A DNA stretch of 64,000 bases from Obrimoposthia wandeli. Taxonomy: Eukaryota. The notes under the pieces are model-generated. The model was not told the DNA's origin and ran no database searches. It saw only the letters and a program-made list of their open reading frames with translations. The stretch spans positions 124,001 through 188,000 of the forward strand of contig CDROCS010001542.1 in NCBI GenBank assembly GCA_977020255.1, given 5' to 3'. This document shows, piece by piece, positions 4,456 to 61,450 of the stretch; positions within the stretch are counted from its first letter, which is position 1; each line of letters starts with the position of its first letter. The translations under genes and the position numbers were made by a program.

Positions 4456-5007
4456 TGTTGGGGTTTCTATATGAAACTTATAGATCCTCTTGAATGCGGA
4501 GGGCCCCAACGTGAGTTCTATAGAAGCAGGTCTTAGGGATGGTTGTGGCCTACTTAATGTTATAGTTGCCTGTCTCAATGCTTATCTGAAGGTGTTTGTT
4601 TTTTGATGTCTCTTAATCTGAAGGGTTTAGAACAATGCTTTCTAATGTAGGAAATCGTTTATTGTTAACACACTAGACTAAAACAAAACAATACGTTTAC
4701 GTACGTATTTCTAAAAAGTTGTAGTAAAATTCCTAAGACTTCTGAAAGTCTCTACACCAGTGGGGATGAACCACGTATCGATTTTAGGTTTTAGGGTTGG
4801 TTGACGCTAGAGTCTTCACTCTAAAATTGCGGCAAGTTCGCAGAGTGTTGCTCTAAAGTATAAGTAGTTTGCCGAGCTGTTGCTCTAACACGGGATGAAG
4901 TTCAGTAGAGTTGCTGCTCTAATTTATAGAGTCTTTCCGAAATTTCACTTTAATTACTAGATAAAAGTTTCCTCAGTAATTTAACAAATTCCAATACAAA
5001 TGTTTTA

Positions 5008-5225
5008 GTAAAATTTACGCGGTATTTTAACAATTTTTAATTCAAAGGCTTTACTAAAATGTACTCGGTATTTTAACAATTTTTAATTCAAAGACTTTAC
5101 TAAAATGTACTCGGTATTTTAACAATTTTTAATTCAAAGGCTTTACTAAAATGTACTCAGTATCTCAACAATTCTTTAATTCAAAGGCTTTACTAAAATG
5201 TACTCAGTATCTCAACAATCTTTAC
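5008..5225. repeat. ~46-bp tandem array in 3' LTR (~5 copies; ~12 copies at 26128-26660 in 5' LTR)
   Basis: Unit aaaatgtactcggtattttaacaatttttaattcaaagactttact counted directly. Confidence 0.9.
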
Positions 5226-5483
5226 TCTTTGTCGTGTGCGGCTCACCTTCCAATCTGCAGACAATTCCGGAGTGCAAGATCCGTGCGATGCGCTGTCCGC
5301 TTGCTAGTTCGGTAACGCAGTAGAGAGTTGTCGGATAGATGGCTCGATCCGAATCCTTTCTAGTAATTCGAATAATTCTGTTGGAAATTTTCGTGATTTA
5401 CCTCCTAGTTTCTTCTGTCTTTCTTCTAACGACTCTCGAAATTGGCGAGAGGAAAACTGCATGATTGAACTGCAAGACTGGAA

Positions 5484-5750
5484 ACTGCTAGATTTTCTGG
5501 TTCTCTGCAACAATGATTTTTCTCGTCTCGAAACTTGTCTGATGGCGAACTGCTTCTCGGAATTGGTGAACTGCTAGACTGAAACTGCTAGATTTCCTGG
5601 TTCTCTGCAACAATGATTTCTTTCGGCTCGAACTTGTCTGATGGCGAACTGCTTCTCGGAATTGGTGAACTGCTAGACTGAAACTGCTAGATTTCCTGGT
5701 TCTCTGCAACAATGATTTCTTTCGGCTCGAACTTGTCTGATGGCGAACTG
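5484..5750. repeat. ~99-bp tandem array in 3' LTR (~3 copies; ~2 in 5' LTR at ~26921-27085)
   Basis: actgctagattt..tggttctctgcaacaatgattt recurs at 5484, 5584 and 5683. Confidence 0.85.
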
Positions 5751-6218
5751 CGAATAACGGTAAGTGTGTTTGGCTTTATATTAAATTACCTCGTCAGTTG
5801 TCTCCCGTCTTCAATCGGTTCTGCGACAATTCTCCTGATTGATATTCTTCTGCTTCGCACTGTGGATAGCGGTAATTTAATTTGTGTGTCTCGATAATTT
5901 TACCTTTTCAGTTGTCTCCTGATCTGGTTCTGCTGGCGCGACGGTGATGGCTCGATTACGATGACTGTTGCTGCTGTGTTGCTGCTGCGACACTGTGGGA
6001 ACTTGTTGCGGCGCTGTGGAAATCTGTCCAAATATGACAGTTATTCTACTAATGACTTTTACTTACTTTGATGCTGTTTGATTGCTTGGCTGCAGCTGTT
6101 TTGGCTCCCACGCTATTTGGTAATTTATTCTTCGTCAATTAATTGATTGATTCGTTTATTTCTCGTTTTCTTATTTCTTGATTAATTCTTTGGGGCCCTT
6201 TAATTTAATTTCAACCTC

Positions 6219-6337
6219 CTTATATATAACACATTGAACATGACCTTTCAAGGTCCTAATATTTAATTTGCCTTTTACTCTCATCAATTTATTTTAAATA
6301 TTATTTTCTATTTAGTTTTATAACCTTGCTTTCAAGG
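6219..6337 (-). promoter_or_regulatory. Putative LTR (U3) promoter: TATA-like box plus two conserved short palindromes
   Basis: Element-sense TATATAAG at 6219-6228, preceded by GGACCTTGAAAGGTCA (6241-6256) and CCTTGAAAGCAAGG (6324-6337); same order and similar spacing in LTRs at 29900-30035 and 59321-59440. Confidence 0.55.
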
Positions 6338-6622
6338 ATTTTATTTTTATATAAATTAGATTAATTATTTAAATTTTATCAAATCCTAATCCTAACATAT
6401 CTCGGGGGTTCTAAAAAAGTTACGTCCCCGGAACATATCGATTTTACTTTGATTTTAAGTTCATCCCTACTAATTCAAGCATTCAACTCAACAAACATGC
6501 CCAATATTTAACAAAAGTCGGTATAGATTTTTTAGGAAAAATTCAGACGCAGTCACAAATTATTCAAATTTGTATTCTATACACAATAAAAATGTAGGAC
6601 ACGGATAAAGGGATGGATTAGG

Positions 6623-7141
6623 TTAATCAATTATGTCCGGCATGTTCTGATCGTCCAGGAAGAGCATAACTTGCTCCAGGAGCAGGTCCGGAAAGGACGG
6701 AATGTCCCCGATGTATAAGGCCGTCTGCTGTTCAGGGTTCAGATGTGGGCTTTCGACAATTAAGTCAAAGTCTGAGCCGTACAGCCGATGATTTTCGATC
6801 CAGAACCGTCTGGCCTGCTGCCACGAGCGGCAGTCGCGGCTAGACCGCCACCGTTCGCGGATGGTAATTTGCACGTCTCGACGGCGCGCCAGGCATACGG
6901 AGCATCTACAGTGTTGTCCGCCAATGCAGGTTGCCAGAGAGCGATTGCCCTTTAGACGTCCTCGGCACATGAGCGCCCATTCTGAGAAGGGGGTGCGGCA
7001 CATTGGGCAAGTGATGTGCCCTGCAGATAGGGCTAGGGATCTGGCCCACTTGTACAGGCACGGCTCGTGGAATTTGTGACCACACCCGGCAGGTTTTGCC
7101 GAAGCTTGCCGGATGGTCTCGAGGCAGATTGAGCAAATCAT
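6623..7141 (-). CDS. Element-borne RING-H2 protein 3 (172 aa; putative E3 ligase)
   Basis: ATG at 7141 directly after gtgcag; C-x2-C...C-x-H-x2-H-x2-C...C-x2-C (CSIC..GCGHKFHEPC..CPMC); intact ORF. The ORF track's TTG start at 7186 is probably not the real start. Confidence 0.85.
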   Translation of the reverse strand: MICSICLETIRQASAKPAGCGHKFHEPCLYKWARSLALSAGHITCPMCRTPFSEWALMCRGRLKGNRSLATCIGGQHCRCSVCLARRRDVQITIRERWRSSRDCRSWQQARRFWIENHRLYGSDFDLIVESPHLNPEQQTALYIGDIPSFPDLLLEQVMLFLDDQNMPDIID

Positions 7142-7492
7142 CTGCACAATAATTACTTTTTTAACTTGGGGTTCAACTGGGTTCAATATTAACTTATGAA
7201 TTTAATATTTTAATTTTAATATCATAAGCCTTAGTATTCCAATCCTACCGAGTTCTGTCTTGATTTTAGGCATGTTTTTCACATTCATACTAAGCATAAA
7301 AATTGTCTTTTGGAGTTTCAGTATAATAATTACAATTTCAAATAAACAACATACATAAAAATGGTAACGGTCATTTTACAGTTTCACAAGATTGTACAAT
7401 TATGATTACAATTATGGTAGCTAATTTATCGCGTTATGCGATACACAGGGGTAGTTCATGATGTCACGTTTTAAGTCAAAAGTTACCTTCGG

Positions 7493-7798
7493 TTACTGCT
7501 GAGTGTTGGGCTGGCCTGTGCGTCGCTCCTCCACGCAGAACGAACACCAGCAGTCGCAGATGTTCTTCCAGCAGTGTACAATGGGTACCACTGCTTGGAG
7601 GCTGTCCCGGTTGTAGACATAGTGCACCGAGAAGGTTGCTCTGCACATCGGGCAGTTTGGGTAGTCGAGGGGATTGTTGTTGTTGGCGATTGGGATCCAC
7701 GTCTCGAGGCATTCGACGTGGAACTGGTGGTCGCAGTTGTTGGGTTTGGTGTAGAGGTCCACGATGTTCTCGTAGCAGATGGAACATTCTCCAGACAT
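7493..7798 (-). CDS. Element-borne RING-H2 protein 2 (101 aa)
   Basis: CSIC..NCDHQFHVEC..CPMC plus C-terminal CWKNICDCWCSFC; intact. Confidence 0.88.
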   Translation of the reverse strand: MSGECSICYENIVDLYTKPNNCDHQFHVECLETWIPIANNNNPLDYPNCPMCRATFSVHYVYNRDSLQAVVPIVHCWKNICDCWCSFCVEERRTGQPNTQQ

Positions 7799-7858
7799 TA
7801 CTGTGAGAGGGTTGGTGTTGAATTTGGGCTCGATTGAGGACTGGTGGTTGTGTGATGT

Positions 7859-8158
7859 TTACACAAAAGTGGTCGGATTTTGTCGTTCCGACAGACAGTA
7901 GTAACACCAACACTCTCTGAAATTCTTCCAACAGAATACCACCTGTACATCTACATCCTCTTGGTTGGGTTCTATCATGATGAACTTTGTGAATTGTCTT
8001 CTGCATACAGGGCAACGAGGGTATGTTGGATGTACGAATTCTCCATAAGTTCTGATCCATTTTGATAAACATTCCTCGTGATGTAAATGGTTGCAGTTTT
8101 CGGGTCTTGTTCTTCGTTCGGTTAGATCTTCCAAACATATTGGGCATTCTTCGGACAT
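7859..8158 (-). CDS. Element-borne RING-H2 protein 1 (99 aa), paralog of RING 2
   Basis: CPIC..NCNHLHHEEC..CPVC plus C-terminal CWKNFRECWCYYC; intact. Confidence 0.88.
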   Translation of the reverse strand: MSEECPICLEDLTERRTRPENCNHLHHEECLSKWIRTYGEFVHPTYPRCPVCRRQFTKFIMIEPNQEDVDVQVVFCWKNFRECWCYYCLSERQNPTTFV

Positions 8159-8282
8159 TCTAAATACATGATGACAATTAATTTCTACATGAGTTTTACA
8201 TATTTCTACTTATTTGTACAATCGCTTCTAGATATTTCTACATTTTTCACACACTGATTTATCTACAACCTCCTCTGATTTA

Positions 8283-11070
8283 TCATGTCTTGATGGGAGG
8301 TGGAGGTAAAGGTCGCAATTCCACTTCCTCCATTGTGGGTGTGTTACAGCATCGCAGTCCTTCGCATTTTCGTCGTATTCTTGGGCATACTTGACTGCCT
8401 TTCACGCACACGACTGTCAATAGGACCACTGCTGTTGACACTACTGCCATTCCAATTAGAGCATTGACCGCTGTTATTCCGCTGTCTGACGATTGATAAT
8501 CGTATTTCATTTTGTTGTTTGTCGGTTTGAATGACGTTTCCATTGGTGTTGATCGGTTTCCATGTATTATGTCCGATTTTCTAATAACTCGCGGATTTGG
8601 GTATTTTGTTTCCGGTCTAACAGGTATTATTAATTGAGATTGGAAATGATGTTTGGGATCTAGTGGAATCGTTCCTTTCACTCTTGTCCTCTTAATGATT
8701 GTACTTTGGTTTCTGGGATTGAGCTCTTTTCCTTTCACTTCTGCCTTTGTTATGACTACTTTTGGCTTCTCGGAATGGCGTTTACTTCCGTTTACCTTTG
8801 CCTTCTTTTTGATTATGATTTGCATTTTGGAATGACGTTTACTTCCTTTCACCTTTTCCTTTTTTATGATCTTGATTGGTTTTCCGGAAATGATTTTCCT
8901 GGGTTTAATACTTATACCGAGTCCACGGAATCGACGTGTCTGGTATCTTAGGGTTATGTAGAATATTTCACCTGTTATTACCATGATTATGGTAGTGGTC
9001 TCTCTAGCATTGCTGGGAATTCAGTTACATAGACATTCTGCATCAAAATGTGGTATTAACATTTGGTTTTGAATTTCGAATCTGATTCCACCATCTGGAT
9101 TGGGACACGCCACTGTTGCCTGGTCAGTTTCTAACAATCTGAAGAATATTCTAACGGAATTCCACACGGTTTTACGTCGTCTACCTGTGATCATAATCCT
9201 GTCGACAACTTTCCATATGCGCTCATCTCTAGGCAATATTAATGACTTTGTTCGGATACTTTGAATGATCCGTTTCCTCTTTGATATCGTTATCCGTAGG
9301 TATAACACCCTTTCATGATATAATAATATCAGTCGGTAGTAAGGTGTATGTTGGTCAATCTTTATTCTGACCTGTCAGATGACATACAATTTCTGATCGA
9401 CATTGTCGGTTGCTGACGTTTGTAGGTGAATGTCTACTACGTGATTTGTTTTTAGTAGAGGAATTTCTATGTATAACGCACGTATTGTATCTTGTCTCCA
9501 TTTACTGATCATGATCTCATAACCAGCCTCGGTCGTGGTGATTTGCATGATCAGCATGATTCCGATGATCGTCCGGTTCCGAATCTCAGGAACTTCTCTG
9601 GAATAACTCAAGTTACTCATATAGTACGGTCTTTCCTCGATATGTTCATATATCGTTGGCTGGTACTCTGGTGCTGGTTCATTTAGGAATGCTGGTCTTG
9701 GTATACTTGTGTTGAATTTTTGTAAATTCATTTGACCTGCTTGTCTTGCGAGATCATGACGTTTCTTTTTTGATCTCAACTCTATCTTTGTACAACAAAA
9801 CAAGATGAGTAATATTAATATTATAAATCCAATGATCAATGCCAGTATTGGATTAACCAATTCTAGAATACCATAACGTATTGCTGGTATCCCTTTACTC
9901 TTGATGGTTAATATTTTAAATTTATGTACACTTTGGTTGGACATGTCACTGAGAAGTACTATTTTAGTTTGTCCAAATGTGTAATCTTCACATGTGACAA
10001 CACTAACTCCATAATGTCCATTAAGTGTTTTCATTTCGGTCGCTGGGACTATACACATTCGTCCTGGACATCCTTTCACACACATGATCATCACGGCTCT
10101 ACTGTGAGACGTCTTGATTATTTCTAGGGTGTTGTCTAGATTTCTCAAATGTAAATTATATTCGGATAGTGTCATCAATTCAGCTTTACTGGTTGGAATG
10201 GCTTGTAGTACCAATCCAATTACTACTCCGTAGATCAATCCTTGTGCAACAGTGCACAGGGCCTTGATTGTCCTTTTGCAAAGGGTTTTGATTATCATTC
10301 GTTTGAGAGATATCTGTTTCTGGTTAGGTCGTTTTGTTGTCTGTCGTTGTTTTGACATTTCTTCGATTCCAGTTTTTCCGATAATCAACTGTACCTGTTT
10401 ACCTTGTATCATCAACTTTCCGAATCCATTTTTGGCGGACAAGCATGTTTTATGTCCTTCCATCGTTTCGATTATCACTCTCTTGCTTCCATACTCACGT
10501 GTTTTGATGACATCGCCGTTGAATATATACGTCGTACCTTTTGTATCTGCATCTTTTTTTATCTCCTTTACAATTCGTTTTCTTCGCATGCATCCGGCGA
10601 ACGTTGCTGATATTCGGTCAAGTGTGCGCTGTCGGTCAACTTCGTAGTCCATTCGGAATTGATTCAGTACTCTGTTTTGTGGATAAAATATCGCTTCATT
10701 CACTATGTTATCCTCTATACTTTCGTCTAGATACACAAGTACTTGGTTTGTTGGTCCATTGGGTCTCTTCATTTTCACAAACTGGAATCTTTTACTATCG
10801 GTTCTCATAGATGGGAGACATTTTCGGATAACCCACACATCAATTAGTCCTATCAACACTAATAGCATTATCAGTGCCGGTGTATTGTACTGTATGATGT
10901 AGTTGTTGATTTCTTTGAACCATGAACTATTTCCGTGGTTGGAGCCTATCTCTTGTGCTCCCGTTATCGGCATTAGACAACTTAACAAGCCTAGTGCTAG
11001 CAATCTTTGGTATTGATAGCTGGGCACTGTTGTTGTGGCTTCATTTGTTTCTCGTTGTTGCTTCCTCTTT
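8283..11070 (-). pseudogene. C-terminal membrane-protein cassette of polyprotein (repeated signal-peptide-like and TM segments), function unknown
   Basis: Hydrophobic segments RLLALGLLSCLMPITGA, ALIMLLVLIGLIDVWVI, LIYGVVIGLVLQAIPTSKA, ILALIIGFIILILLILFCC, IIGIMLIMQITTTEA, ALIGMAVVSTAVVLLTVVCV; ORFs 9375-11213, 9021-9308 and 8283-8984 are one frame separated by TGA codons. Confidence 0.65.
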
Positions 11071-11079
11071 TCGGAGTAT

Positions 11080-11480
11080 TTTTCTATTTCTCGAACGAGT
11101 AACGGTTTGAATTCCGTATCTGGTCTATTCTGTTTGATATAAACCATCGCTTCTTCTGGTGTATGACCATGGTACTCTACCAACAAGGATACACCTATAA
11201 TTGGAGCTAACATTGTACCTTTTTTCTGATATATCAGAACGCCGTTTCTTCTGTGACTTCGGCTTGGATGGTTTGAGTCAACTTCATCAGGTGTTGTTGT
11301 GCATCGTTTATCTCTCGATTGGAAGCATGTATGTATCGAGTTGTGTCATCTTCAGTATTTTGACACAGACTGATTATCTCATTTCCGACTTCAACAATAT
11401 TAATTACTCGGTTGATACTGTGGAACTTTAATCCAGCAGTATCTATATCTCCTGGATGACATAGAAATACTTTTGGCATT
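11080..11480 (-). pseudogene. Second, catalytically dead DSP-fold domain
   Basis: KITQIMPKVFLC...INRVINIV...(frameshift)GVLIYQKKGTMLAPIIGVSLL...TPEEAMVYIKQNRP parallels DSP1 but has YQKKGTML in place of HCQKGISR. Confidence 0.65.
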
Positions 11481-11599
11481 ATCTGCGTAATTTTGTCGAC
11501 TCCGGCTAAGAATAAACCGGTCAACAATAGTGCTTGGATGAAATTCTTTTCCTTTGGATCCTCAGGGATGTCGTCCATCCGTCTCTGTTCTTGCAACAG

Positions 11600-12010
11600 G
11601 AGTTGGTAATTTGACAATTGTCCCAAAAAATTAAGGTTTGGGTTCGCAATACTTCTTCTTTCCTGCAGGTATTTCAGCGCTTCTAGTACCTGCATTCGTC
11701 TAGTCTTTATTAGATACGCCAATACTAGGGTTGCTGATCGGGAGATTCCTTTCTGACAATGTACCAACACTTTTCCTTGGTTTTGGAGTTCTCTGTGAAG
11801 TATCTCGTTTGTTTCTACGAACCATTCGAGAAGATTAGCCTCCATTGAGGTTTTTACTCTTGATGTCATAGCTCTGATCGTCTGATATTGCGATTTGTGA
11901 TTCATTGTAACATTAATCACGTATGTTATCCTTTGTTCCAACAGTTTCTTTTCGTCTGTTGCGTCTTCCACATTTCCGAGGTATAACTTACCTGGAATGA
12001 TCTCACTCAT
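11600..12010 (-). CDS. Dual-specificity protein phosphatase domain (VH1/MKP-like), active-site motif intact
   Basis: SEIIPGKLYLGN...VLVHCQKGISRSATLVLAYL...EALKYLQERRSIANPNLNFLGQL; HCxxGxSRS at 11735-11761. Confidence 0.93.
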
Positions 12011-12370
12011 TGGTGGCATTAATTCTGACTCTTCAAGTTTTAGTCTTTCTAATCTCTTCTCTATTTGTTCGTCGATGATGGATAATTTCGCCAGTTTCTT
12101 TCCTCTCAGCATTCGTATTGCTGGAGAGATATTCATCTTTGTCTCTGATGTCTGTTCCTTTGTTGGTTCCTCTTCCGACACGGTCTCTTCTGCGGATTTA
12201 ATTCGTCTTTCTTGTATATTTTGTTTCACGAATTCTATGTTTTGTCTTTTTCTACTCTCTTTAGCGAATTCAACCTCCATGGTTCTTCCGAATCGTTCTA
12301 TTATGTTATCTTCGGATTCTGTTGATTCTGGATCGCTACTTCCAGGTTCGCTGTCTTGACTAGACTCGCT

Positions 12371-14734
12371 CTAAGGGTATTCTGGTATGTCTGTCTGAAC
12401 TGAAATTAATGAAGGGGTTAGAATAATTGAATTGACTGGTCCTGCGTATCTGTGAATCGGATACGGTATTACACTATCTTTAAGTATCTCAACTTGGAAC
12501 TGTGCTCCATAGCACATGACAATTGTTTCCAATTTACCCATGATGGACAATACATCAAAATAGGTGACATTCAGCTTAGATATCGGTGTTTTCGCATAAT
12601 TAATTAAATTGACTCGTATCTCGGTTGATGACGGCCATCGATTTTTTAGTAAAATTATAATTTCGTCGTTTATCGATGTAATCACACTTGGCGCGAATGA
12701 TACTATTTCGGCATGATATTTTGGTTGGATTGAGGTTGTCACTTGTTCTCGGATCATATTGATTCTTTGTGGTTTATTTTTAGCTTCCCACTTCCGGTAT
12801 CCGCTGTCAATGCGTAACTCTGCCGTTGCTTTAATGATTTTATTGTTTGTTACTTCCGGTTGGGTTGGCGAATGAAATCCTTCTATTACGCTCAACCTTA
12901 CAGATACTTCCGTTTGATCTGTGTTTAATTGGTGAGATTCCGGTATACTACATACAATGGTCTTTCCGTCAAAGAATTTGGTGTCCATCTGACAGATTAT
13001 CTTTTCAGTGTCAGCGTCAATTAAATGAACTCTCATGATATCTCTTTGCCCATGTGAATTACGTAATACCATTATCACATCGTGGTATTCTTGTTTGAGT
13101 CTTTTTGGTGTACCATGAAGTATGTGACCACCGGCCGGTTCTTTTTCTTCCTGACTGGCTAGTCCTGCTTCAGTACTGTCATAGTTCTGCCATGCAACTA
13201 TGTTTGGTGTCAATGTGATTTCGATTATCACTTTCTCAGTCGTAAATACATTGGAGTTTTGATGTAGTTCTGCGACTAATGTATTTCCGTCGTAGTATGA
13301 CACTCTAAGTTCGCACAGAAATTCGTTTGTTAGTGCATCTTTCACAATAACTTCTTTCGCCACATCTGTTGGTTGTGTTCTTTCGAAAACAACTATTATC
13401 TCTTCGTCTTCTTCTAATATCTCTTGTGGTGCGATGTGTCGGATTACTTCTTTTTCCTCTTGGTGTTTCATTCTGAGCATACCAATTCTCGCTGGTTTTT
13501 TCTTGCTACCACTTGTCATCATATTTATGTAGTTTCGATCACTTACCATTCGTGTCAGTTTAATGGTATTGGTATTCGGCTTCAACTTCTGTGATCTTAA
13601 CTCATATCGTGACGCGTTATCTTTATTTGGTACTAATTTACATCGATTTGCATGTACAATCATCGGTTCCTTGTTCCGATTCTCTTCGTTGATTACTTTC
13701 AAATTTGTTGAGGTTGTCTGGATCACCTTGTATCGTCCTTTGTATGGTCTATGAAGTTTAAACGATAGACCTGGTTCGATGACTGGATAAAATATAATCA
13801 CTTGATCTCCGACTCTAAATTCATGTGGTTTTGCCTTTTTGTCATATTGTTCCTTGTAACCTTCTTGATTGAATTTCAGTTTCAATCCTGCTTTAGTCCA
13901 AGCATCTTGCAATCTTTCTTTCATAACGACAATGTATTGTTCAGTTTCTAGATACTGAGATGTTGGTTCGGTCCACTCCAGATCCATTGGCATATTGTTC
14001 TGTCTGAGATACATCAGATAGAATGGTGTGTGACCCGTCGCCTCTCGAACTGAATTCCTGTAAGCATATAAACATGAAGGTAAATATTTATCCCAATCCT
14101 CTTGCTTGTCTGAGCAATAGGATTGTACCATCATACATAAAGTTTTATTAAACCTTTCTACTAGACCATCGGTTTGTGGGTGATATGGTGAAGTTTGTAA
14201 CTTCATGATTCCGAATATCTTCGATACTGCTTTTATTACTTCTCCGGTGAAGTTCTTACCTTGATCCGTTAACAACTTTCTAGGCACTCCGTATCGAAAT
14301 ATTATCTCTTCCACTAAGATCTGCGCTATTGTTTCAGCCTTCTGGTTTTGCATGGGATATGCTTCTACCCATCTCGTCATGTAGTCCGTAAATACTATGA
14401 TGTACTTGTTTCCTTTACTTGATTCTCTCAATGGTCCCAATATATATATCGCTGTGAATTCCATTGGTGCCAAGGGAACTGGCATTGGTTTCAGTAGAAC
14501 TTTAGTACGAGTTCCAGTGTCTTTTCTGGTTAAACATACTCTACATTGTTTACACCATTGTTTTATGTCGTCTTCCATACCATCCCAATGGTACTTCTCT
14601 TTGATTCTGGCTATTGTCTTTCGTCCTGACAGATGTCCTCCTAGTGTTCCATCGTGGTACTGGATCATCACTGCTGTTTTCAATGACTTCGGAATTACTA
14701 CCACTATCTTTCCGACATTGTTAACAATATACAA
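12371..14734 (-). pseudogene. pol: Integrase (HHCC, D-D35-E, GPY-like) plus long C-terminal extension
   Basis: H..GGH..GRKT...CKQC; catalytic D1 mutated to Y (AIYILGP, codon 14444-14446); LTDQGKNF; GLVERFNKTL; PYKGRY. Confidence 0.93.
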
Positions 14735-14755
14735 GATTCCTTCTTTTATCGAGTA

Positions 14756-16230
14756 TTATTTCGTCATTTCATCGTTTAGATCTCCTTTCACCAACAGTTC
14801 TTTGATTAGACTCAGTTCTTCATCTTCTTTCTGTTCTTTGATGATCTCTTTGTCTATTTTACCCGTCTTCAGCAAAATCGTTAATAGATTTGCTTCTCCT
14901 TTTTGGTCGTTGGTTTCATCTTGTTCTTCTTCTGGAATTATGTTTCCTTTCTCGTCTACATTTGTCAACCTCGACAAACAATCTGCGTTGCCATTCGACT
15001 TTCCGGTTCTATAACGGATTTCTAGGTCAAATTCGGCCAATTTTAGAAACCATCTGTTTAATCTACTCATCTCATCTCTATGTTTATACAAGAACTGTAG
15101 TGGTTTGTGATCTGTATATAGGAATACTTTTTGTCCTAGCAAGTAGTGTCTGTACTGTCTACATGAATACACTATGGCTAGACATTCCTTTTCAATAACA
15201 GAGTATCCTCTTTCGGCTCTGTTTAATCCTCTACTCGCATACGCGATGACGTGTTCTCTTCCTTCATCATCCTCTTGTCCCAATACTGCTCCTACAGCAT
15301 AGTTACTTGCATCTGTCATTAGTATGAATTGTCGGTTTATATCTGGAAACGCTAATATTGGTGCTTTTATCAGTCTTTCTTTTAAATGTTCGAACGCTTG
15401 TTGTGCTTCTTCTTCCCATATGAACTTCTCATCTTTCCTCGTCAACTTTCTCAACGGTGTTGCTATATCTGAAAAATGTTCTACAAATCGTCTATAATAG
15501 TTCGCAAGACCTAAAAAACTATGTATTTCCTTAACAGTCTTTGGCGCTAAATGCGCTTTTACTTTGTCGATCTTTGCTGGATCAGGTCGGATGCCTTCTT
15601 TCGATACTATATGTCCTAAATATGTTACTCGCTCTTTGGCCCATTCGCATTTTGTAGGTTTAACTTTTAATTTAGCGTTTTCCAGTCTTTTAAATACAAC
15701 TTCAAGATTTTTTAAATGTTCTTCGAACGTTTTAGAGAATATTATTATGTCATCGATATAAACCATCGTGTTTGCACACGATGCGAGTACAAAATTCATG
15801 CAACGCTGAAATGTTGCTGGAGCTCCTGTCAGTCCGAATGGCATTTTTTCGCATTCGTACAGTCCATCTCCGCAGGAAAAGGCTGTTTTGTGTTTGTCCT
15901 CTTCCTCTATCTCGATTTGCCAGTATCCACTCTGCAAATCCATTGTCGTAAAATAATCTGAATTACCTAATTTATCGAGCATCTCTTCGATTCTAGGTAA
16001 TGGATACACATCTTTTCTTGTGATCTTGTTCAGTTCTCTGAAATCTATACAAAATCCTTCTTTTTTACCAACACCACAGGTGCTGAGAATGGTGAAAAAC
16101 TCGGTCTAATTACTCCTGTTTTAGACATATCTTCAATCTGACTTTTTACTTCATCTTGTAACTGTAATGGTACTCGATATGGTCTTCTTCTGACTACTTT
16201 GTCTTCTGTCAGCGGTATTGTGTGTTTTAT
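14756..16230 (-). pseudogene. pol: Reverse transcriptase and RNase H (Ty3/Gypsy)
   Basis: RRPYRVP...SPFSAPVVLVKKKD / FCIDFRELN (small deletion between them), DLQSGYWQI, MPFGL, YIDD (15749-15760), TDASNYAVGAVL, EKECLAIV, TDHKPL. Confidence 0.96.
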
Positions 16231-16699
16231 TACAGGTGTTTCTCCTATGTCATACGGATTTTTTGCAATTACTTTTGGAAATTTATGTATTAGATCGAGT
16301 AATTGTTTCTTTTCTCTGGTTGTCAGTCTTTCTGATTGGATTACTATTTCTTCGTAATCATTCGTATCTTTATCGAGTTTCATAGCACACACGGTGGAAT
16401 TATCCATCTGTGCTATCTTTCCCAACCTCATTCCTCTGTATAACAGGATGTCGTTGTTGGTTGTGTTCATCAGCCTAACTGGTATTTTGTGGTTTTCAAT
16501 CAGACATACTGTACTCACAACTGGTAATTCGTATTTCTCTATGAAATCCCGTGATGGTTCGAACACAACTGGTCCTTTATCTTCTGATAATGTGTGACCT
16601 TGAATGAGAAATTGTGATCTTTTACCGATTTTTATAGGATTTTCTATAATTACATCAATTTGGTTTATTTGTCTATTTGATGTACTATCTTTCTATCTT

Positions 16700-17030
16700 G
16701 GATCTTGTAAATCGATACTTATCCCTTTGAGTTGTGATAGTACATCCATTCCTAAAATTGTAGGTTCAGGACATTCTTTCATGATTCTAACTGGTATAGT
16801 GATCGTATTACGTCCAATTATAGATGTACATGGTAATATTCCCGTCACTTTTACAGGGTCTCCATTGACCGATACTAAGAATTCATCTGGTTCTGCCATT
16901 GTTCGTTTCTGTTCCTCTGTCAAACAATCTTCACTTACTATCGAAGCTACACCACCTGTATCAATTAAGGCTTTTACTCTTAAATTATTTACTCTAATGA
17001 TAGCTGCTGGTCGCTGTGCTCCATTTATAT
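16700..17030 (-). pseudogene. Retropepsin-type aspartic protease domain 2 (canonical position before RT)
   Basis: RVKALIDTGGVASIVS (D codon at 16962)...SVNGDPVKVTG...ILGMDVL. Confidence 0.88.
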
Positions 17031-17139
17031 TTCCCATGTGGTATATTGTATTTATCGAATTATTAAACTCTGTCGGTCCACTTCCTTTGTTTGGATAGTG
17101 AAATCTAATATTTCTCACTTGTCGATCTATTATCCTTCT

Positions 17140-18100
17140 ACAAATCGGACATGATACCATTTCCTTCGCACATCTCCGACATGTTCTTACATGTCCGCAT
17201 GGTAAAAAGGCAACTTATATTTTGTTGACCATGCAGACTGCGCATTCCGGATCTTCCAGTACGTATTCTAGTTCGTTTATGTACTCTTTCTCTTTTGTTT
17301 CAATTGTACTGTCATCTTTATCTCTCAATAATTCAAAAATTAATCCGTATCCGTTTCGCATAGTTTTTATTTTTAATTCTACCAAATCTCTGATTTTTTC
17401 TGCTTCCTACGGATATAGTCTTCTCACGAATGACACTACCGGTGTGTCTTGTTGATCCAAAATATCTTTCCGTGTGATTTGGTATTCGATTACACATTCG
17501 GTTTTCTGTTCTTTTTGCTTTATTTTGTTTTTAAAAATACAAAATTCATGATGTAAAGTTTTCTTAGGTAACTCAAGAGTATATCTGTCGATAATTCGTT
17601 CTTTTTTACACTTGTGGCATTTAATTACGTATTTACCATCCTTTTTTATAGCAAAAAGTCCCTTTTTTGCCAATTTTTTAAGTCTTGGGTCTTCGAAAGT
17701 TACTTCTCGATATTGTTCGTCACATTCGTTCACTTCTCGCATAACTTCGAATATGTCTTCAATTCGGCTATTTGTTATTACTCTACCTGTTATTAGAGCT
17801 GATTCTCCTTTTGGAATCCCGTCACTGTAATCGAAATCGGGTGCTTTTCCCGTTTGGATTTCTGGTACGTTTGAAGTTTTCAGTTTCAAAAGAAATGGAC
17901 AATTTGGTGCATCTCTTTTATGACGTCTCATTGGGTTTTCATTCTTCTCCCACTTTCTAAAATTTACTCTTCACCATACGCATCGTACTACTTCCTCATG
18001 ACCATAACTACTTGTCGCGTTTAACATTTCTAAACCTGATCTTGCCATTTTACGTGCCATTCCTTTTGAATAGTACAGTTCTAGTGATCTTCGTCTATTT
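17140..18100 (-). pseudogene. Inhibitor-of-apoptosis module: BIR1 (17890-18100), degenerate BIR2 (17535-17715), C3HC4 RING (17140-17244)
   Basis: Repaired BIR1 RCVW[C]KSKFRKWEKNENPMRRHKRDAPNCPFL fits C-x2-C-x16-H-x6-C exactly (TGA at the 2nd Cys, +1 T); BIR2 REVTF..KLAKKGLF..CHKC..HHEFC; RING CAVCMVNKI*VAFLPCGHVRTCRRCAKEMVSCPICR is IAP-type. Confidence 0.88.
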
Positions 18101-18339
18101 TTCTCGATTCTCAAGGGATCTTTTTCTGACAGATTCACATATGTTATTTTCCTCCTCGTCGTAGCTTGTGGTCCGGAGTTTACATCTTTGTAGTGAAGAA
18201 TCGACTTTACTAGCGCTTCCTGTTTCCTATCTTGGTACGGATTTCCCATACGGAACATAGTGTATTTTTCCTTTTCGACTATAGGTCCTCTCAACATTTT
18301 TAACTCTCTCGCTGAACTGTCGTTCTTAAAACTCTTGTT

Positions 18340-18660
18340 GTTTGGTAATATAATTATTCCTTCAAACATCCGTATTACATCCATCCCAATCATGACTGGA
18401 CTACCACAATCTGTGAATATTCTAGCATTTAACTGCAATGCTCTTCCATCGATATTTAACGAACATTTCAGTGTTCCTTCTGACACTACATCTGTACCAT
18501 TCACGTTAACAAATGTCTGTTTTCTAGGACATACTTCTCTTAATTCTTTTGATGACAAGATTTCTTTACTCAGTACTGATACTGCAGATCCAGTATCGAC
18601 TTCGGCAAGATATTCTCTTCTGTTCAGTGTTACTGCTACTTGTGGTGGAGCATTTGGATT
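18340..18660 (-). pseudogene. Retropepsin-type aspartic protease domain 1 (extra copy)
   Basis: EYLAEVDTGSAVSVLS (D codon at 18597)...NVNGTDVVSEG...VMIGMDVI. Confidence 0.87.
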
Positions 18661-18984
18661 CTCATTGGATATCCTAGACTTTAGAATTCTTCTGGAATTA
18701 TCTTTTTTGTCTTTTTCCTCTGCTTGTGGGATCTCACTGTAGTTCACTTTAGGCCATCTTATCATTAAAATGCCTCTCTTGAACTTTTCCTTCTCTTCCT
18801 TTAGTTCCTTCATTGGATATAGGTTTAGCGCCACTTCTTCCTTGTCTGGTAACGGAATCTTTGGTTTTCCTGGTATCTTTGCATATTCTCCTGGGTTATC
18901 ATTATCGTCGTCGTTGTCGTCTCGATAGTTTCTTGGTTCTCGCATCATGGTTCTCGTTTGATGTTGCTTCTTCTTGAGGGCTCG

Positions 18985-20866
18985 CTACTCGTTCTCGTGA
19001 TGATGGTGCATTAGATATTTTGCTAAAAATGGAAAACATCCAATTATAAGTTGCCAGGTGATTCCGGTTATCCTGTATAAACTATACGTAGACAACACCT
19101 GGGCTATAATTACCTGCACAAATTTAATTATAACATAAATACCTATGATACCCGAAAATAATTGTCCTAAAACAAGGAATTTCCCCCACATCTTTCTAAG
19201 TGTCTGATGTGCTGCTTCCTTGAAATGACTTGGCGATAATAACATATCAAAATTCGCATATCTAGCTCCTGGCGGTAATGCTCGATGTACCATCTCCGTA
19301 AGTACTCTGGCCCTTTTTACTGGAAACATTATTTCGTTCCAGGCCGCTTTTAAGTCTTTTTCATTGTACAAACCTGCGTTCTCCATATTTTCTACCGCTT
19401 CGAATTTCATTTTTCCTTTAAGATTCGTCATTTTTATCATCTCTGGAGTTTTCGTTGGCTTTCGGTCAGGTAGCGTTATTCAAAGATCATTCGTCATCTG
19501 ATATTCAGGTGCCATTATATTAGAGCAGCTGATTTCTTTAGTTGGAGTGTCTTTTGGAAGTATCATTCTCGTGATTGGTTCAACAAAGAGTTATTTTAAA
19601 TTATGCGTTACTGCCAATTCACTCGTACATCGGTTTGTTGTTCTCAACTGTACTTCTACTTTATTACACTTGTAAGTATACAATACTTCTCCCATGGTTT
19701 TAGCAAATACTCCTTCATCTAAGGGTAATAATGGTGCTACCATGTCTGGATTTGTAATAGCTAATGCTAACTTTGTTCTTACGATCTCTTTGTTTAGCTG
19801 GCAATCTCTCTCAATCATCATCCGATATAACTGTTCCATTTGCATCAATCCTTTATGATAATAAAAATAAATTTTATTATTAAAATACGTATGTAGCTGC
19901 ATATCTCTAGGTTTTAGCTTGGTTTCTGCCAATGCTATTAATTCTCTGGACAAAACTATTCCAGGATAGTTTGTAGTACTAACAGTCATTCCGCATAGCG
20001 CTTTATTTCTCTTTTTAATAAATATCAATCCTTCTTCTGTTGATGTTGCCATTAACAGTGTAGGTGTCGCCGTCATAGGAATTGATCTTGTTTCATTTTG
20101 AAATCCTTCTCCAACTTTATTATACAGGAACCCTTCTCCATCTTTATTATACAGGAACCCTTTTATTTTATTAAAGCTAATTTCTTTCAAAAATACTAAA
20201 GAGAATTGTTTCGGATTCACGTGATACACAATTGTGGATTCGCCTGTAAAACAAGATGCATCTGTCATTCTACATTCCGGATACTTCATCATTCGTTGTG
20301 TCTTTTTATCAAAATTGGCGGTCCATGTTTGTAATTCGATTTTATAAGTTACGTCCATTACTAACTCTGTTACTTTGGTACCACGCACGTTTTTTTGTTC
20401 CTCCGTCACAAGATCCATCAGGCCATCGTTGTCCTACTCTCGTGACTGTTTCGTATCGTCTCACCCCAACTTTTACATCAGGTTTGTAATTCTTGTCTAT
20501 TTATATTGTTCCTGTTCGAAATGCGTCTTCGCAATCTCTCGGAAAAACCTCATGTGGTTTGTACGGTGTGGTAGGTGTGATTTCCGACATAAAACTTCTA
20601 TGGCCACAATAGAATTCGTGATAACTTGAATGGACTGAACATTCTTTCACTTCTACTTGTATTTTATCAACATCCTGATACACAAAGTAGTTTTCAATAC
20701 CTTTAACTTCTAATTTTGACGGTTGTGATTCTGGACAGTCTTCGCTGTCAAGCAGTGAATACTTTTGTCCCATCTTTGGTATGCTACAGTCGTATGCTAT
20801 CAACCCTGATGCCTGTTGCATTCCCATAAACATTACTAGCATCATCATCATCATCGTTGTGGACAT
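18985..20866 (-). pseudogene. env: Env-like glycoprotein resembling chuvirus/Jingchuvirales (class III) fusion proteins
   Basis: Internal signal MSTTMMMMMLVMFMGMQQASG then LIAYDC (20786-20803), DGSCDG, DCQLNKEI..TKLALA..NPD, MGEVLYTYKC..VEV..R.T..C..EL.V, and C-terminal WGKFLVLGQLFSGIIGIYVIIK..TM; these match remembered chuviral G motifs. Confidence 0.8.
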
Positions 20867-20964
20867 ATTTGGTTGATTGTTTCTTTCTTTCGGACGGTAT
20901 TGTTTATTTTCCCTTTGACGATTCTCGTGACATTGCTCGTCATCGTCTTCGTTCATTTCCACAA

Positions 20965-21360
20965 TGGTTTTAGCGTAGTCACTTAATTTTGCCCAACCTC
21001 CGTTTTCGTCAATTCGTCTCTGCAATACATTCTCGATCAAATACATCGCTTCATTTATTCCTTGTTTGACTTCGTGAGGTTGGCTCGTTCGTTCCGTCAA
21101 TTTGAAACATAGATATGTGATCGCTGTAATTAACTTTTTATTTGTAGTCTGGTTTCCACATAATCTCGCTAAAACTTCACCATCGTAAAATCTATCTATT
21201 GATGCATGGTATACATGATTCGCAGTCATTCTCTTCACTGCAGACATTTGTGATCTGACTGCTTTAGTCAAATTGTCTGTTATATCGGTTGTTTCATCTT
21301 TGTACATTTTGAACAACTTCGGCTTCACTTGCCTGAGAATTCCCGATAGTATATCTTTAC
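20965..21360 (-). CDS. Bcl-2-like helical domain inside the Gag-Env ORF
   Basis: ILRQVKPKLFKMYKDETTDITDNL (BH3/alpha2-3-like), VLARLCGNQTTNKKLITAITY (divergent BH1), LQRRIDENGGWAKL (BH2-like; ENGGW at 20993-21007). Confidence 0.65.
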
Positions 21361-21511
21361 TACTTGGAGCTTCCGAATTCATATCACCTCTGATATCTTC
21401 ATTTCGCTCCGTACTATACTGCTCTAATGACGCTGCTAACTGCCCAATGCTTAGGTGTCTCTCCTCATCAGTCTGAGGTGTAGTTAGAACATTTCGTAAT
21501 ATACTTCCGTC

Positions 21512-21539
21512 CTTTCTAGGTCTTCCAGGTCCTCTTCGA
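21512..21539 (-). other. AT-hook-like motif RRGPGRPRK
   Basis: GRP core flanked by basic residues in ORF 20501-24163. Confidence 0.6.
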
Positions 21540-22044
21540 AAATACTGATACTCAGTTTGATTCTCTCCTGGATCATATGGTTCACCATTATACTGTATCT
21601 CTTGACTTGGTCCTTCTTCATGGCCAATCTCTTCGTTTTGTCGCATCATCTGCTCTGCTTGTCTATCTCTGTATGCAGCATGCCAAATTGGTGAATCCAA
21701 ATCTACAATCTCGGAGATTTCGTCTTCTCCTACTAGTTGGGTTACGTTTTCGTTTTGTCTCACTTGGTTAGCTATATCCGTGACTTCATCTTGTCTGGTT
21801 TGAATTATCTCTGGTTCTGGTGGTACTTCGACCACCGGAGTCGTCAACTCATTTTCTAGTTCCACGTCTTGTAATTCAGCTACGTACGGTTCTGGTGTGG
21901 ATGTCTTGTTCCAAGCTTCAGCTACATCATTATCTCCACTTTCGCTTGAACTGTCTAAAATTTCTATAGGCGTTTTTATCATTTCCAACGCAGAGTTTAA
22001 TATCTCAGTTAATCCTTCATTATCTACTAACTCTTGACGTTCTA

Positions 22045-22270
22045 CAGTAATGACATCAATTTTTTCCTCTAATTCATTTCCTATAGGATATCCGCACTCG
22101 ACTGGTACGTCTTCGTCATCTAGTGATCTTCCTTTATAATGGAATAACATATTCATTCCGTCTATTTCAAGTTTCTCGGCCAACTTTTTCCGAATAGTTT
22201 TCATTGTTTGGTATACGTTAAGTTTTTCATGTATGATCTGTCCGAAAATTAATCGAATCGAAATTTTCAT
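22045..22270 (-). CDS. SUMO/ubiquitin-like domain inside the Gag ORF
   Basis: MKISIRLIFGQ...TMKTIRKKLAEKLEIDGMNMLFHYKGRSLDDEDVPVECG...IDVIT resembles SUMO/Ubl beta-grasp (F.F.G..L.D.DTP...IDV); no C-terminal GG. Confidence 0.6.
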
Positions 22271-22799: not shown

Positions 22800-24822
22800 T
22801 AACTAAAATTTCCTTTCGGTTTCGGCGAACTCTCATGACTATTTGTCTTGTCAATATTATTATTATTATATCTACCGGAATTATTATATCTCTCAGCTCC
22901 TTGCTGTCCTACGTAATTATTGTATCTCTCAGCTCCTTGCTGTCTGTCTGTATAGTTATTGTATCTACCTGGTGACTGTTGTCTATCTGTATACTGATTA
23001 TTCGGTCTCCGTTGCTGCGGAGTATATCCACCACCTCTATTCCATGGCGGGGGTGAATTATATCCTCTATAATTATTTCCAAAATTATTATTACCGAAAT
23101 TATTATTTCCAAATCTGTTAGTTCCGAACTCTTTACTTCTCGTACAGTCTCTCGAATAGTGACCCATTTGTTTACACGTATAACACATTATTCTCCCTCG
23201 AATATCGATCTTATTCTGTTCATCTTCGGACTGCACTCGACGACTATTCTGTCTATTGTCGTAGCGTCCTCTAAAATCATTTCTTCGGAAGTTCGATTCA
23301 AAACCACTTCCTCGATTATTGAATCTTCCGTCACTACTTCCTGTATTATTTCCAAATCGAGAGTCACTTCGCTCTCCTCTGTTTGCGTTGTAATTCCTAT
23401 CGTCCCCTCTCCAAGGTTGGCGATTTCCTGAATTATCTCTACTAAATCTATTCCTGGAATCATCTCTATTTCTATTCCACGAATCATTACTATTTCTACC
23501 TCTTGAATCATCTCGATTCCTGTTCCAAGACTCACTATTATTTCTACCTCTCGAATCATCTCGATTCCTATTTCGGAAATTATCTCTGTTTCCGTTACTG
23601 GATTCATCTCCTTTTTCAAACTTATTTTGTCCATAATTTCGATTCTGAAAATTACTCGGTTCTGTTTTATTCACAAATACCTTTGTCTTATCGTCATCAC
23701 CTGCGGTCATTGCGTAAATTGCCAATGCTGCGTTATTTTTTATATTTTTCTCAATTTCTCTCGCCTTTCGTACGGCGTTATCAAAATCGTTTGTGTCCGA
23801 TACTGCCAATAACACTTTAATATCTTTTTTCAGTCCTCCTCTAAATATGTCTAACAAAACTTCTGCCATTTCATTTTGGTTCCGGTTATTTTCCGCTGCT
23901 TGTGCTTCTGGAGCTACAGGGTTACCTTCTAGATTTATCATTATTCTTCTTGGGTACGCTCTTGCGGCTAAGGTTCTCAGAACATACGCGTATTCATTCA
24001 CGCCTTCGTCATGTTTCTGTTTCCGTTCTCTCATGATTCGCTTGTTTACTTTTGCAAAGTCTCCCAATACCAATTTTCCAATAAAAGCATTTTCCAACGT
24101 TTCCCAATTAAAACGTTCTGCTTCTGTCAAATGTTTATACACTTCAAGTGCTAATCCGGTCAAATGTGCCTGTACACGGACACATTTTCTCTATCGTTCC
24201 ATCCTTGAACATCTGCGCAACTCGAATATTCTGCGAGGAAGTCACAAATACTTTCCTCATCTCCTTTAAACTTTGTAATCTGCAATGATCCCGAAAAGTT
24301 GGGTCTCAACGTCGCATTTAAGGCTAGTGCCAACTGTTCTGCATTCATGTCACCTACATTATTTCCTGCATTGTTATCTGCTTGAGCTCCTGGTTGAGCC
24401 ATATTTTCAACTATATCCTCCTCAACTATTTCTTCAATATTAATCACTTGAACTTCCTCAACCGCTACTGGATTGTCAATTTCAATTTCTTCTGGGTTTT
24501 GAACTTCAATAATATCAATTTCTTCTGGGTTTTGAACTTCAATAATATCAATTTCTTTTGGGTTTATTTCACCAAACAACTCAGTCAGATCAAAACTGTC
24601 GGTTGAAACTGCTGATTGATTTACGTCTCTTTCTGATACGTTTTCTTCGATTCTAGTCTTTTCTATTACTTTGTTATCTGTTTGGGAAACCTGTTCAATT
24701 CGGTTAAATTTATTATTATTTATCTCTTCCTGGGGAATCTGACTTTGTCTTGTAGTATTAAACGCGGGTCCTTTTCTATTATCCGTTGTCTTATCAATTA
24801 TGTATTCGTTTACGATATCAAT
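22800..24822 (-). pseudogene. gag: Gag (acidic leader, capsid-like region, R/D/N-rich nucleocapsid with one CCHC knuckle)
   Basis: First ATG at 24402 (MAQPG..); QITKFKGDEESICDFL..Y...GWNDRE; one-A deletion near 24190; CYTCKQMGHYSRDC at 23144-23185. Confidence 0.9.
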
Positions 24823-25350: not shown

Positions 25351-25547
25351 TTATCTTATCTCAATTTGCTGATATCTTCTTCTTCTGAAACTTATTCTCA
25401 ATTTGCTTATATTTTCTTCTTCTGAAACTTATTCTCAATTTGCTTATATTTTCTTCTTCTGAAACTTATTCTCAATTTGCTTATATCTTCTGTAAGTTAT
25501 TCTCAATTTGCTTATATTCTATGGGAAGTCGCTGTGTCCGACGAGCT

Positions 25548-25574: not shown

Positions 25575-27722
25575 TGTTGGGGTTTCTATATGAAACTTAT
25601 AGATCCTCTTGAATGCGGAGGGCCCCAACGTGAGTCTATAGAAGCAGGTCTTAGGGATGGTTGTGGCCTACTTAATGTTATAGTTGCCTGTCTCAATGCT
25701 TATCTGAAGGTGTTTGTTTTTTGATGTCTCTTAATCTGAAGGGTTTAGAACAATGCTTTCTAATGTAGGAAATCGTTTATTGTTAACACACTAGACTAAA
25801 ACAAAACAATACGTTTACGTACGTATTTCTAAAAAGTTGTAGTAAAATTCCTAAGACTTCTGAAAGTCTCTACACCAGTGGGGATGAACCACGTATCGAT
25901 TTTAGGTTTTAGGGTTGGTTGACGCTAGAGTCTTCACTCTAAAATTGCGGCAAGTTCGCAGAGTGTTGCTCTAAAGTATAAGTAGTTTGCCGAGCTGTTG
26001 CTCTAACACGGGATGAAGTTCAGTAGAGTTGCTGCTCTAATTTATAGAGTCTTTCCGAAATTTCACTTTAATTACTAGATAAAAGTTTCCTCAGTAATTT
26101 AACAAATTCCAATACAAATGTTTTAGTAAAATTTACGCGGTATTTTAACAATTTTTTAATTCAAATGCTTTAGTAAAATATACTCGGTATTTTAACAATT
26201 TTTAATTCAAAGACTTCAAAATATACTCGGTATTTTAACAATTTTTTAATTCAAAGACTTTACTAAAATGTACTCGGTATTTCAACAATTTTTAATTCAA
26301 AGACTTTAAAATATACTCGGTATTTTAACAATTTTTTAATTCAAAGGCTTTAGTAAAATATACTCGGTATTTTAACAATTTTTTAATTCAAAGACTTTAC
26401 TAAAATGTACTCGGTATTTCAACAATTTTTAATTCAAAGACTTTAAAATATACTCGGTATTTTAACAATTTTTTAATTCAAAGACTTTACTAAAATGTAC
26501 TCGGTATTTTAACAAATTTTAATTCAAAGGCTTTACTAAAATGTACTCAGTATCTCAACAATTCTTTAATTCAAAGGCTTTACTAAAATGTACTCAGTAT
26601 CTCAACAATTCTTTAATTCAAAGGCTTTACTAAAATGTACTCAGTATCTCAACAATCTTTACTCTTTGTCGTGTGCGGCTCACCTTCCAATCTGCAGACA
26701 ATTCCGGAGTGCAAGATCCGTGCGATGCGCTGTCCGCTTGCTGGTTCGGTAGCGCAGTAGAGAGTTGTCGGATAGATGGCTCGATCCGAATCCTTTCTAG
26801 TAATTCGAATAATTCTGTTGAAAATTTTCGTGATTTATCTCCTAGTTTCTTCTGTCTTTCTTCTAACGACTCTCGAAATTGGCGAGAGGAAAACTGCTTG
26901 ATTGAACTGCAAGACTGGAAACTGCTAGATTTTCTGGTTCTCTGCAACAATGATTTTTCTCGTCTCGAAACTTGTCTGATGGCGAACTGCTTCTCGGAAT
27001 TGGCGAACTGCTAGACTGAAACTGCTAGATTTCCTGGTTCTCTGCAACAATGATTTCTTTCGGCTCGAACTTGTCTGATGGCGAACAGCGAATAACGGTA
27101 AGTGTGTTTGGCTTTATATTAAATTACCTCGTCAGTTGTCTCCCGTCTTCAATCGGTTCTGCGACAATTCTCCTGATTGATATTCTTCTGCTTCGCACTG
27201 TGGATAGCGGTAATTTAATTTGTGTGTCTCGATAATTTTACCTTTTCAGTTGTCTCCTGATCTGGTTCTGCTGGCGCGACGGTGATGGCTCGATTACGAT
27301 GACTGTTGCTGCTGTGTTGCTGCTGCGACACTGTGGGAACTTGTTGCGGCGCTGTGGAAATCTGTCCAAATATGACAGTTATTCTACTAATGACTTTTAC
27401 TTACTTTGATGCTGTTTGATTGCTTGGCTGCAGCTGTTTTGGCTCCCACGCTATTTGGTAATTTATTCTTCGTCAATTAATTGATTGATTCGTTTATTTC
27501 TCGTTTTCTTATTTCTTGATTAATTCTTTGGGGCCCTTTAATTTAATTTCAACCTCCTTATATATAACACATTGAACATGACCTTTCAAGGTCCTAATAT
27601 TTAATTTGCCTTTTACTCTCATCAATTTATTTTAAATATTATTTTCTATTTAGTTTTATAACCTTGCTTTCAAGGATTTTATTTTTATATAAATTAGATT
27701 AATTATTTAAATTTTATCAAAT
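25575..27722 (-). repeat. 5' LTR of giant element (last 13 bp displaced to 30098-30110 by nested solo LTR)
   Basis: Matches 4456-6384; continues as aaat-cctaatcctaaca after 30093. Confidence 0.95.
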
Positions 27723-60802: not shown

Positions 60803-60810
60803 TATTAAAT

Positions 60811-61390: not shown

Positions 61391-61450
61391 TAAATTGATA
61401 TAAGAAATCGTAAAATAAGAATTGTGAAATAAGATAAAAGTAATAAGTAA

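Follow-up and report, generated by a model that had tools for sequence, protein, structure and literature searches.

A probable captured and strongly diverged Bcl-2 domain within the polyprotein encoded by a Burro-like giant gypsy LTR retroelement from the flatworm Obrimoposthia wandeli

The closest described counterparts of the locus analyzed here are the Burro elements of planarians, giant gypsy LTR elements (Burro1/GYPSM1 and Burro2-4) with a very high copy number (Grohme et al. 2018, in PMC6431247). Burro1 is longer than 30 kb including its LTRs, has an internal region of up to 25 kb, and encodes MATH/TRAF, ankyrin, and dUTPase-like domains, some of which were detected only by HHpred (PMC6431247). 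A Ubi2/SUMO-like motif is located upstream of a BCL2-like motif in Burro elements, a BIR domain is present, and an Env with matches to mononegavirus fusion glycoproteins lies between BCL2 and the protease, in frame between gag and pol (PMC6431247). Burro1 is transcribed upon loss of PIWI control (PMC8532177), and its BIR-RING module (B-IAP) is reported to shield stem cells from apoptosis mediated by caspases (Lee et al. 2026, in PMC13465017). As cited there, the reported function concerns the IAP and not the BCL2 domain. Within the literature found, a BCL2 motif in Burro was mentioned only in PMC6431247, and the figures and supplements of Grohme 2018 and Lee 2026 may cover the domain as well. 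An earlier note on the present sequence knew of no Bcl-2 homolog among LTR retroelements, a view that PMC6431247 contradicts. Since it is thus published that Burro elements have a BCL2-like domain, and where it lies, the locus does not open a new category. What is added here is support at the level of the fold, evidence from two subfamilies of purifying selection, the observation that the NWGR motif is replaced, and a reading of the junction to Env. Retrotransposons that carry a chuviral glycoprotein also occur in mosquitoes and are BEL/Pao-type elements ("Anakin"). The capture of a chuvirus-like glycoprotein is common to these elements and the one described here, and no Bcl-2 domain was seen for the mosquito elements in what was found on them (PMC7642597, PMC10084718).

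The window, a stretch of 64,000 nucleotides, contains a gypsy LTR element of approximately 23.3 kb on the minus strand (4456-27722) with an internal region of 19.2 kb (Table 1). Its two LTRs are 95-99% identical across three long blocks. The 5' LTR is adjoined on its outer side by part of an older LTR copy (27723-28062, 84% identical), because of which a target-site duplication is unreadable. Beyond this fragment, 43-bp and 52-bp tandem arrays are found, and further tandem repeats with units of 46, 49, and 37 bp are located in the LTRs and the leader (4933-5222, 24950-25522, and 26051-26659). At least 150 matches with 98-100% identity to the element were obtained in the 1.35-Gb assembly when the best 150 of 11,788 candidates were scored. 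A second copy, about 90% identical and in the opposite orientation, starts within the window (~60650-64000, plus strand) and continues past its end.

Table 1. Features of the element in the window (positions as in the 64,000-nucleotide stretch)
Feature	Position	Strand	Evidence or remark
5' LTR	25575..27722	-	pair with 3' LTR; LTR lengths ~2.1 and ~1.9 kb
Gag CCHC zinc knuckle	23141..23185	-	PF00098, E=6.8e-6
Ubiquitin-like domain, preceding the Bcl-2 domain	22091..22237	-	PF00240, E=0.0036, below the Pfam cut-off
Bcl-2-fold domain, ~138 aa, residues 943-1080	20951..21364	-	AlphaFold, Foldseek, VIA-align, profile against PDB, dN/dS
TNKK, BH1 position, residues 1016-1019	21134..21145	-	HMM alignment to Bcl-xL; counts in copies
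RRIDENGGW, BH2 position (QWINDNGGW-type in subfamily B)	20993..21019	-	alignment and copy counts
Polar spacer, ~32 aa, from the domain to the hydrophobic segment	20855..20950	-	ends with in-frame Met, residue 1109
Predicted internal Env signal peptide: 12-aa Met-rich core, then QQASG	20804..20854	-	sequence, hydropathy, junctions in both subfamilies
Env, Monjiviricetes (chuvirus-like) fusion glycoprotein	18985..20803	-	three stop-free pieces
Aspartic protease-like 1, BIR, RING (IAP module), aspartic protease-like 2	16693..18984	-	Pfam
RT, RNase H, integrase (gypsy order)	12371..16692	-	Pfam
Dual-specificity phosphatase and C-terminal region without confident family	8283..12370	-	PF00782, E=9.5e-33
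Three small RING-finger ORFs, between polyprotein end and 3' LTR	6623..8209	-	zf-RING_2
3' LTR	4456..6397	-	minus-strand ends TG...CA

A stop-free frame of 1229 amino acids (20501-24190, minus strand) comprises the Gag zinc knuckle (residues 336-350), the ubiquitin-like domain (652-700), the Bcl-2 segment (943-1080), the beginning of Env, and, between these two, a stretch rich in methionine (1113-1124). The PDB matches of the ubiquitin-like domain are mostly chains of the ubiquitin, ISG15, or SUMO type. The pieces of Env match PF24664 with E-values of 3e-14, 5e-30, and 4e-27. Several stops and frame changes interrupt the coding region of the window copy and also break its protease/BIR/RING/protease section, in which the BIR and RING domains cover 16693-17970; the same order is unbroken in two further copies. 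One of these (L091) has a single stop-free frame that runs from the ubiquitin-like domain through Bcl-2, Env, protease, BIR, RING, and the second protease to RT, and in the other (L093) a single frame extends from the CCHC knuckle through RNase H. The position of the two aspartic-protease-like domains on either side of the BIR-RING module suggests that the IAP might be excisable from the polyprotein. The PDB matches of the RT-RNase H-integrase region are Pol proteins of Ty3, caulimoviruses, and foamy virus. Two stretches of the dual-specificity phosphatase were found in the copy L092, and the small RING ORFs match zf-RING_2 with E-values of 2e-8, 6e-10, and 8e-9. Neither MATH, ankyrin, and dUTPase domains nor a retrotrans_gag domain were detected in the element by Pfam and PDB sequence searches.

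Like Burro, the element encodes a single huge polyprotein with Gag-CCHC, a Ubi/SUMO-like domain (here below the Pfam cut-off), a BCL2-like domain directly before an Env that is in frame between Gag and Pol, a BIR, and RT-RNase H-integrase in gypsy order between paired LTRs; a very high copy number and a flatworm-type host are likewise common to both. The in-frame position of Env is evident from the PF24664 matches and from L091 and L093. In contrast to the two or three CCHC knuckles of Burro, one was detected here; MATH, ankyrin, and dUTPase were not detected by Pfam and PDB sequence search, and the IAP is flanked by two protease-like domains. Because of its smaller total and internal lengths, the element is filed as Burro-like and not as Burro1, and this membership rests on architecture and host, compared by description. 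No named Burro was among the 120 RT relatives listed. The relatives P0037, P0042, and P0061 (ENA/JGI data) combine a chuvirus-like Env with RT in one chain, and P0043 (ENA/JGI data) combines ankyrin with RT.

The Bcl-2 domain is hardly recognizable from the single sequence. Against Pfam PF00452, it scored 14.1-14.4 bits (E 0.06-0.07) and therefore stays below the cut-off of 31.4 bits. A PDB search returned four matches at E≤10, with Bcl-2 absent among them; word-index protein searches yielded 0 of 326 candidates among longer proteins and, with the region 920-1229, 0 of 1109 candidates; the ESM Atlas, with low recognition, gave nothing significant (best 0.89), and the AlphaFold model from this sequence was unusable (pLDDT 41.8). 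A blind scan of the genome with PF00452 resulted in 30 matches, the weakest 15 of which (E 0.6-9) were all copies of the element, one of them a member of a diverged subfamily B with 36% identity. The remaining fifteen, non-element matches (L031-L045), 10 of which are over the cut-off, probably represent host Bcl-2-family genes or exons. An alignment (hhalign) to the host paralog L031 covered BH2 alone, with 7.8% identity over 21 columns, so that the donor gene was not identified.

The picture changed when relatives were included. A profile of 22 stop-free stretches of element copies (A1), whose best member reached E=6.8e-4 against PF00452, had a best PDB match at E 0.39 to an unrelated enzyme, and 27 of its 37 PDB matches belonged to the Bcl-2 family. 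Among 1.84e9 proteins, A1 found three at E≤0.001, all of them singletons on contigs shorter than 1 kb; one (P0003) is at the Pfam Bcl-2 cut-off (31.4 bits). Another distant relative of the domain, P0002, showed a weak match (E=0.01) to the Bcl-2-fold protein A49R of Orthopoxvirus. Sixteen element rows and the three proteins were combined to an alignment of 19 rows without any canonical Bcl-2 (A2), which matched Bcl-xL in the PDB with E=3.4e-4; the best 60 of the 103 matches (E≤1) were all Bcl-xL or Bcl-2 constructs. The AlphaFold model based on A2, to which P0003 contributed as part of the alignment, had a pLDDT of 86.8 and a pTM of 0.85, with four of five models above 84. All 42 Foldseek matches listed belonged to the Bcl-2 family with a probability of 1.00; the lowest E-value was 3.3e-3, and no match reached E≤0.001. 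In VIA-align, ranks 1 to 36 among 48,161 chains were Bcl-2-fold proteins and the first unrelated chain followed at Z 5.2; the top match was Hydra Bcl-2-4 (Z 13.4, rmsd 2.8, 132 aligned residues), a value close to the Z near 13 that helical bundles can reach by chance. The Bcl-2-like fold proposed in the earlier note was thus recovered as a Bcl-2 helical bundle, provided that the model was built with relatives, and, judged by profile and model, the segment is very probably a strongly diverged domain of the Bcl-2 family. That a Burro-like giant gypsy element of a flatworm carries such a domain as captured cargo within its polyprotein is likely.

The peptides quoted in the earlier note are all located in the 1229-amino-acid frame, with SSKDIL beginning at residue 943 (nt 21364) and NGGW at residues 1063-1066 (nt 20993-21004). 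The model contains six DSSP helical segments that match helices 1-8. The proposed correspondence to Bcl-2 helices was therefore retained, but the range of helices 2-7 was not: ILRQV, for which the helix-2 register was rejected, would form the end of helix 1 at the BH4 position, so that the domain probably spans about helices 1-8. This register was derived from where the helices lie and which ranges align. Where the long central helix begins (model residue 81), TNKK, or SNKK in subfamily B, takes the place of NWGR, and in the HMM alignment to Bcl-xL lysines occupy the positions of the BH1 glycine and arginine. The loss of NWGR noticed before was hence borne out by the alignment and by the counts in other copies: (T/S)NKK is present in 42 of 44 subfamily A loci and also in most B loci. 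I-x-x-NGGW was found in 44/44 subfamily A loci, and NGGW is retained in subfamily B at about 40% identity. In the 30 loci of subfamily B, which were retrieved with the diverged copy from the PF00452 scan and are decayed copies with stops (L061 is the locus L048, and L089 and L090 look identical), the four BH2 residues N, G, G, and W are present in 24, 20, 22, and 20 loci, respectively. An additional, upstream BH2 tryptophan occurs in 22 of these 30 loci and is absent from subfamily A.

Compared with cellular and herpesviral Bcl-2 proteins (HyBcl-2-4, Trichuris BCL-2, Bcl-xL, KsBcl-2, and BHRF1), the domain has the same predicted fold (Z 12.6-13.4), the BH2 NGGW, and a hydrophobic segment downstream. 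It differs in its low identity (10-17%), in (T/S)NKK instead of NWGR, in being embedded in a polyprotein, and in the shortness of the hydrophobic segment, behind which lie a predicted cleavage site and Env. With the poxviral proteins A52, B14, A46, and A49, which have no anti-apoptotic role, it shares the Bcl-2 fold and the loss of the BH1 motif; their structural scores, however, are lower (Z 5.7-7.7, as opposed to 12-13.4 for cellular and herpesviral Bcl-2), and BH2 is kept in the domain described here.

Within subfamily A, dN/dS was 0.12 for the Bcl-2 domain, 0.12 for the ubiquitin-like domain, 0.17 for the start of Env, and 0.28 for the upstream linker, as calculated from 14 diverged loci after removal of HSPs with less than 70% identity; since these loci were chosen by a Bcl-2 search, the values are biased toward conservation. 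Against subfamily B, synonymous sites were saturated in 11 of 11 pairs, and pN was 0.32-0.39. The identity between the subfamilies is 35-41% over residues 960-1079, 21-39% in bins of the linker, and 39-57% in Env, which indicates that the Bcl-2 domain is constrained, but not exceptionally so. Taken at the level of the sequences, this is evidence of purifying selection on the domain across two subfamilies.

The Met-rich hydrophobic segment (nt 20819-20854) is located 32 residues past the last predicted helix, and its core is built on an (ATG)n repeat (20840-20854). The methionine run comprises 4-6 residues in 37 of the 41 measurable loci (44 examined), and runs of 11, 17, 52, and 210 in the other four (L012, L050, L055, and L057) reflect either expansion or assembly errors. 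Signal peptidase sites are characterized by small residues at positions -3 and -1. In both subfamilies, the Met-rich core is followed by small residues at -3/-1 and then by the Env start [LI]-x-A-Y-D-C, a pattern that fits a predicted signal peptidase site. The same type of junction is found in P0061, a single-chain relative with Gag, signal, Env, and Pol and no Bcl-2 match, so the hydrophobic segment belongs to the Env module. From hydropathy, from the junctions of both subfamilies, and from that of P0061, the suggestion that the segment acts as the Env signal peptide is well supported.

The same suggestion had extended to a second use of the segment as the tail anchor of the Bcl-2 domain, which is topologically plausible. 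Canonical pro-survival Bcl-2 proteins end in a C-terminal membrane anchor of about 18-20 amino acids. In comparison, the segment is short, with a core of 12 amino acids and a best 19-residue Kyte-Doolittle mean of 1.45, and no basic residues follow directly. These properties, together with the Bcl-2-free junction of P0061 and the in-frame Met at residue 1109, are in line with a segment that serves Env only, being removed or degraded after use, or with an Env that starts from its own upstream Met; the Bcl-2 domain would then be soluble or remain on Gag. We consider this nearly an even call, falling slightly on the side of doubt, because the long frames keep domain and signal in one chain, where cleavage leaves the signal attached to the domain by default, and because the spacer evolves under constraint in subfamily A (residues 1078-1108, dN/dS 0.05, at 28% identity to subfamily B). 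Since domain and segment share one chain, the segment would stay on the Bcl-2 domain after cleavage, and membrane tethering may be only a by-product of this topology. The fuller proposal, in which the Env signal peptide doubles as a Bcl-2 tail anchor and the (T/S)NKK groove acts in a non-canonical manner as a second survival module, is regarded as rather doubtful. If true, a single cut by signal peptidase would free a lumenal Env and yield an ER-anchored protein of the Bcl-2 fold. The literature found contains neither a test nor a statement of such dual use of a signal peptide and tail anchor.

Read in the order Gag-CCHC, ubiquitin-like, Bcl-2, signal peptide, Env, protease, BIR-RING, protease, RT-RNase H-integrase, and phosphatase, the polyprotein would be processed as follows. 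During translation, the Met-rich segment would direct Env into the lumen of the ER, with a cut by signal peptidase ahead of the Env start L-I-A-Y-D-C. The Bcl-2 domain, probably released from Gag by the proteases of the element, would stay on the cytosolic side, where the spent signal would hold it for at least a short time. There, it might aid the survival of the host cell during expression of the element, beside the IAP and by a route other than the standard NWGR/BH3 contact. A pro-survival role is the likeliest function, though in our judgment its chances are only even; it is the best guess because the modeled fold is nearer to cellular and herpesviral Bcl-2 and because an IAP is encoded in the same polyprotein. 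That the domain represents a second anti-death module, as put forward before, is plausible. Canonical BH3 binding is doubtful due to the replacement of NWGR: the glycine and the arginine of BH1 are important for interactions in the Bcl-2 family, and the binding of Puma by ORFV125, which has SPGR, is weaker by a factor of about 250 (PMC9027176). As the Burro1 IAP reportedly supports regeneration in planarians, it is a testable question whether the BCL2 domain constitutes another survival module, independent of the first.

Alternatively, the fold may have been kept while its role in apoptosis was lost, the domain being a scaffold similar to A52 or B14 that blocks innate-immune or stress signaling in concert with the cargo of ubiquitin-like, RING, and phosphatase domains. 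Bcl-2 folds without a groove that inhibit NF-kB instead are known (PMC2494871), the prevalent (T/S)NKK would be compatible with such a change, and the element is rich in signaling and ubiquitin cargo. The model, however, lies closer to the groove-bearing Bcl-2 proteins than to A52, B14, A46, and A49, BH2 is retained, and the IAP is part of the same polyprotein; we therefore rate the scaffold as fairly improbable. Less probable still is a structural role in the cycle of the element, for instance a matrix-like tie of Gag to the membrane of Env insertion. Lying on one chain with Gag before it and the Env signal after it, and being conserved across two subfamilies, the domain would suit this role, but in P0061 Gag and Env are in frame without such a domain, which is thus not generally needed. 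A search of the 120 RT relatives listed with A2 revealed no Bcl-2-like domain (best E 0.24), although the majority are fragmentary and may end short of the region. Finally, a chance likeness, that is, a helical linker with an NGGW word forced into a Bcl-2 shape by the alignment, would account for the non-significant single-sequence tests (Pfam, PDB, Atlas, AlphaFold), for the PDB matches of A1 alone at E≥0.39, and for the short alignment to L031, but is very improbable in view of the confident model from 19 rows lacking canonical Bcl-2, the match over the whole domain with a gap in Z from 13.4 to 5.2, the motifs at the correct helix positions, and the independent annotation of BCL2 at the same spot in Burro (PMC6431247).

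The mitochondrial code of the host was deduced from COX1. In two of the three loci examined, AAA occurs where Asn is invariant, and ATA at positions of Ile, which corresponds to table 9, the code of flatworms and echinoderms. The size of the assembly (1.35 Gb) and the AT-richness of the window would be in keeping with a planarian. The third locus, on a small contig, does not show this codon use and looks foreign. Many COX1 matches in the assembly contigs are devoid of TGA codons and look bacterial, and L100 uses a different mitochondrial code; from the COX1 matches, the assembly seems to contain foreign DNA. Near-identical COX1 copies of the host type were also present in several large contigs.
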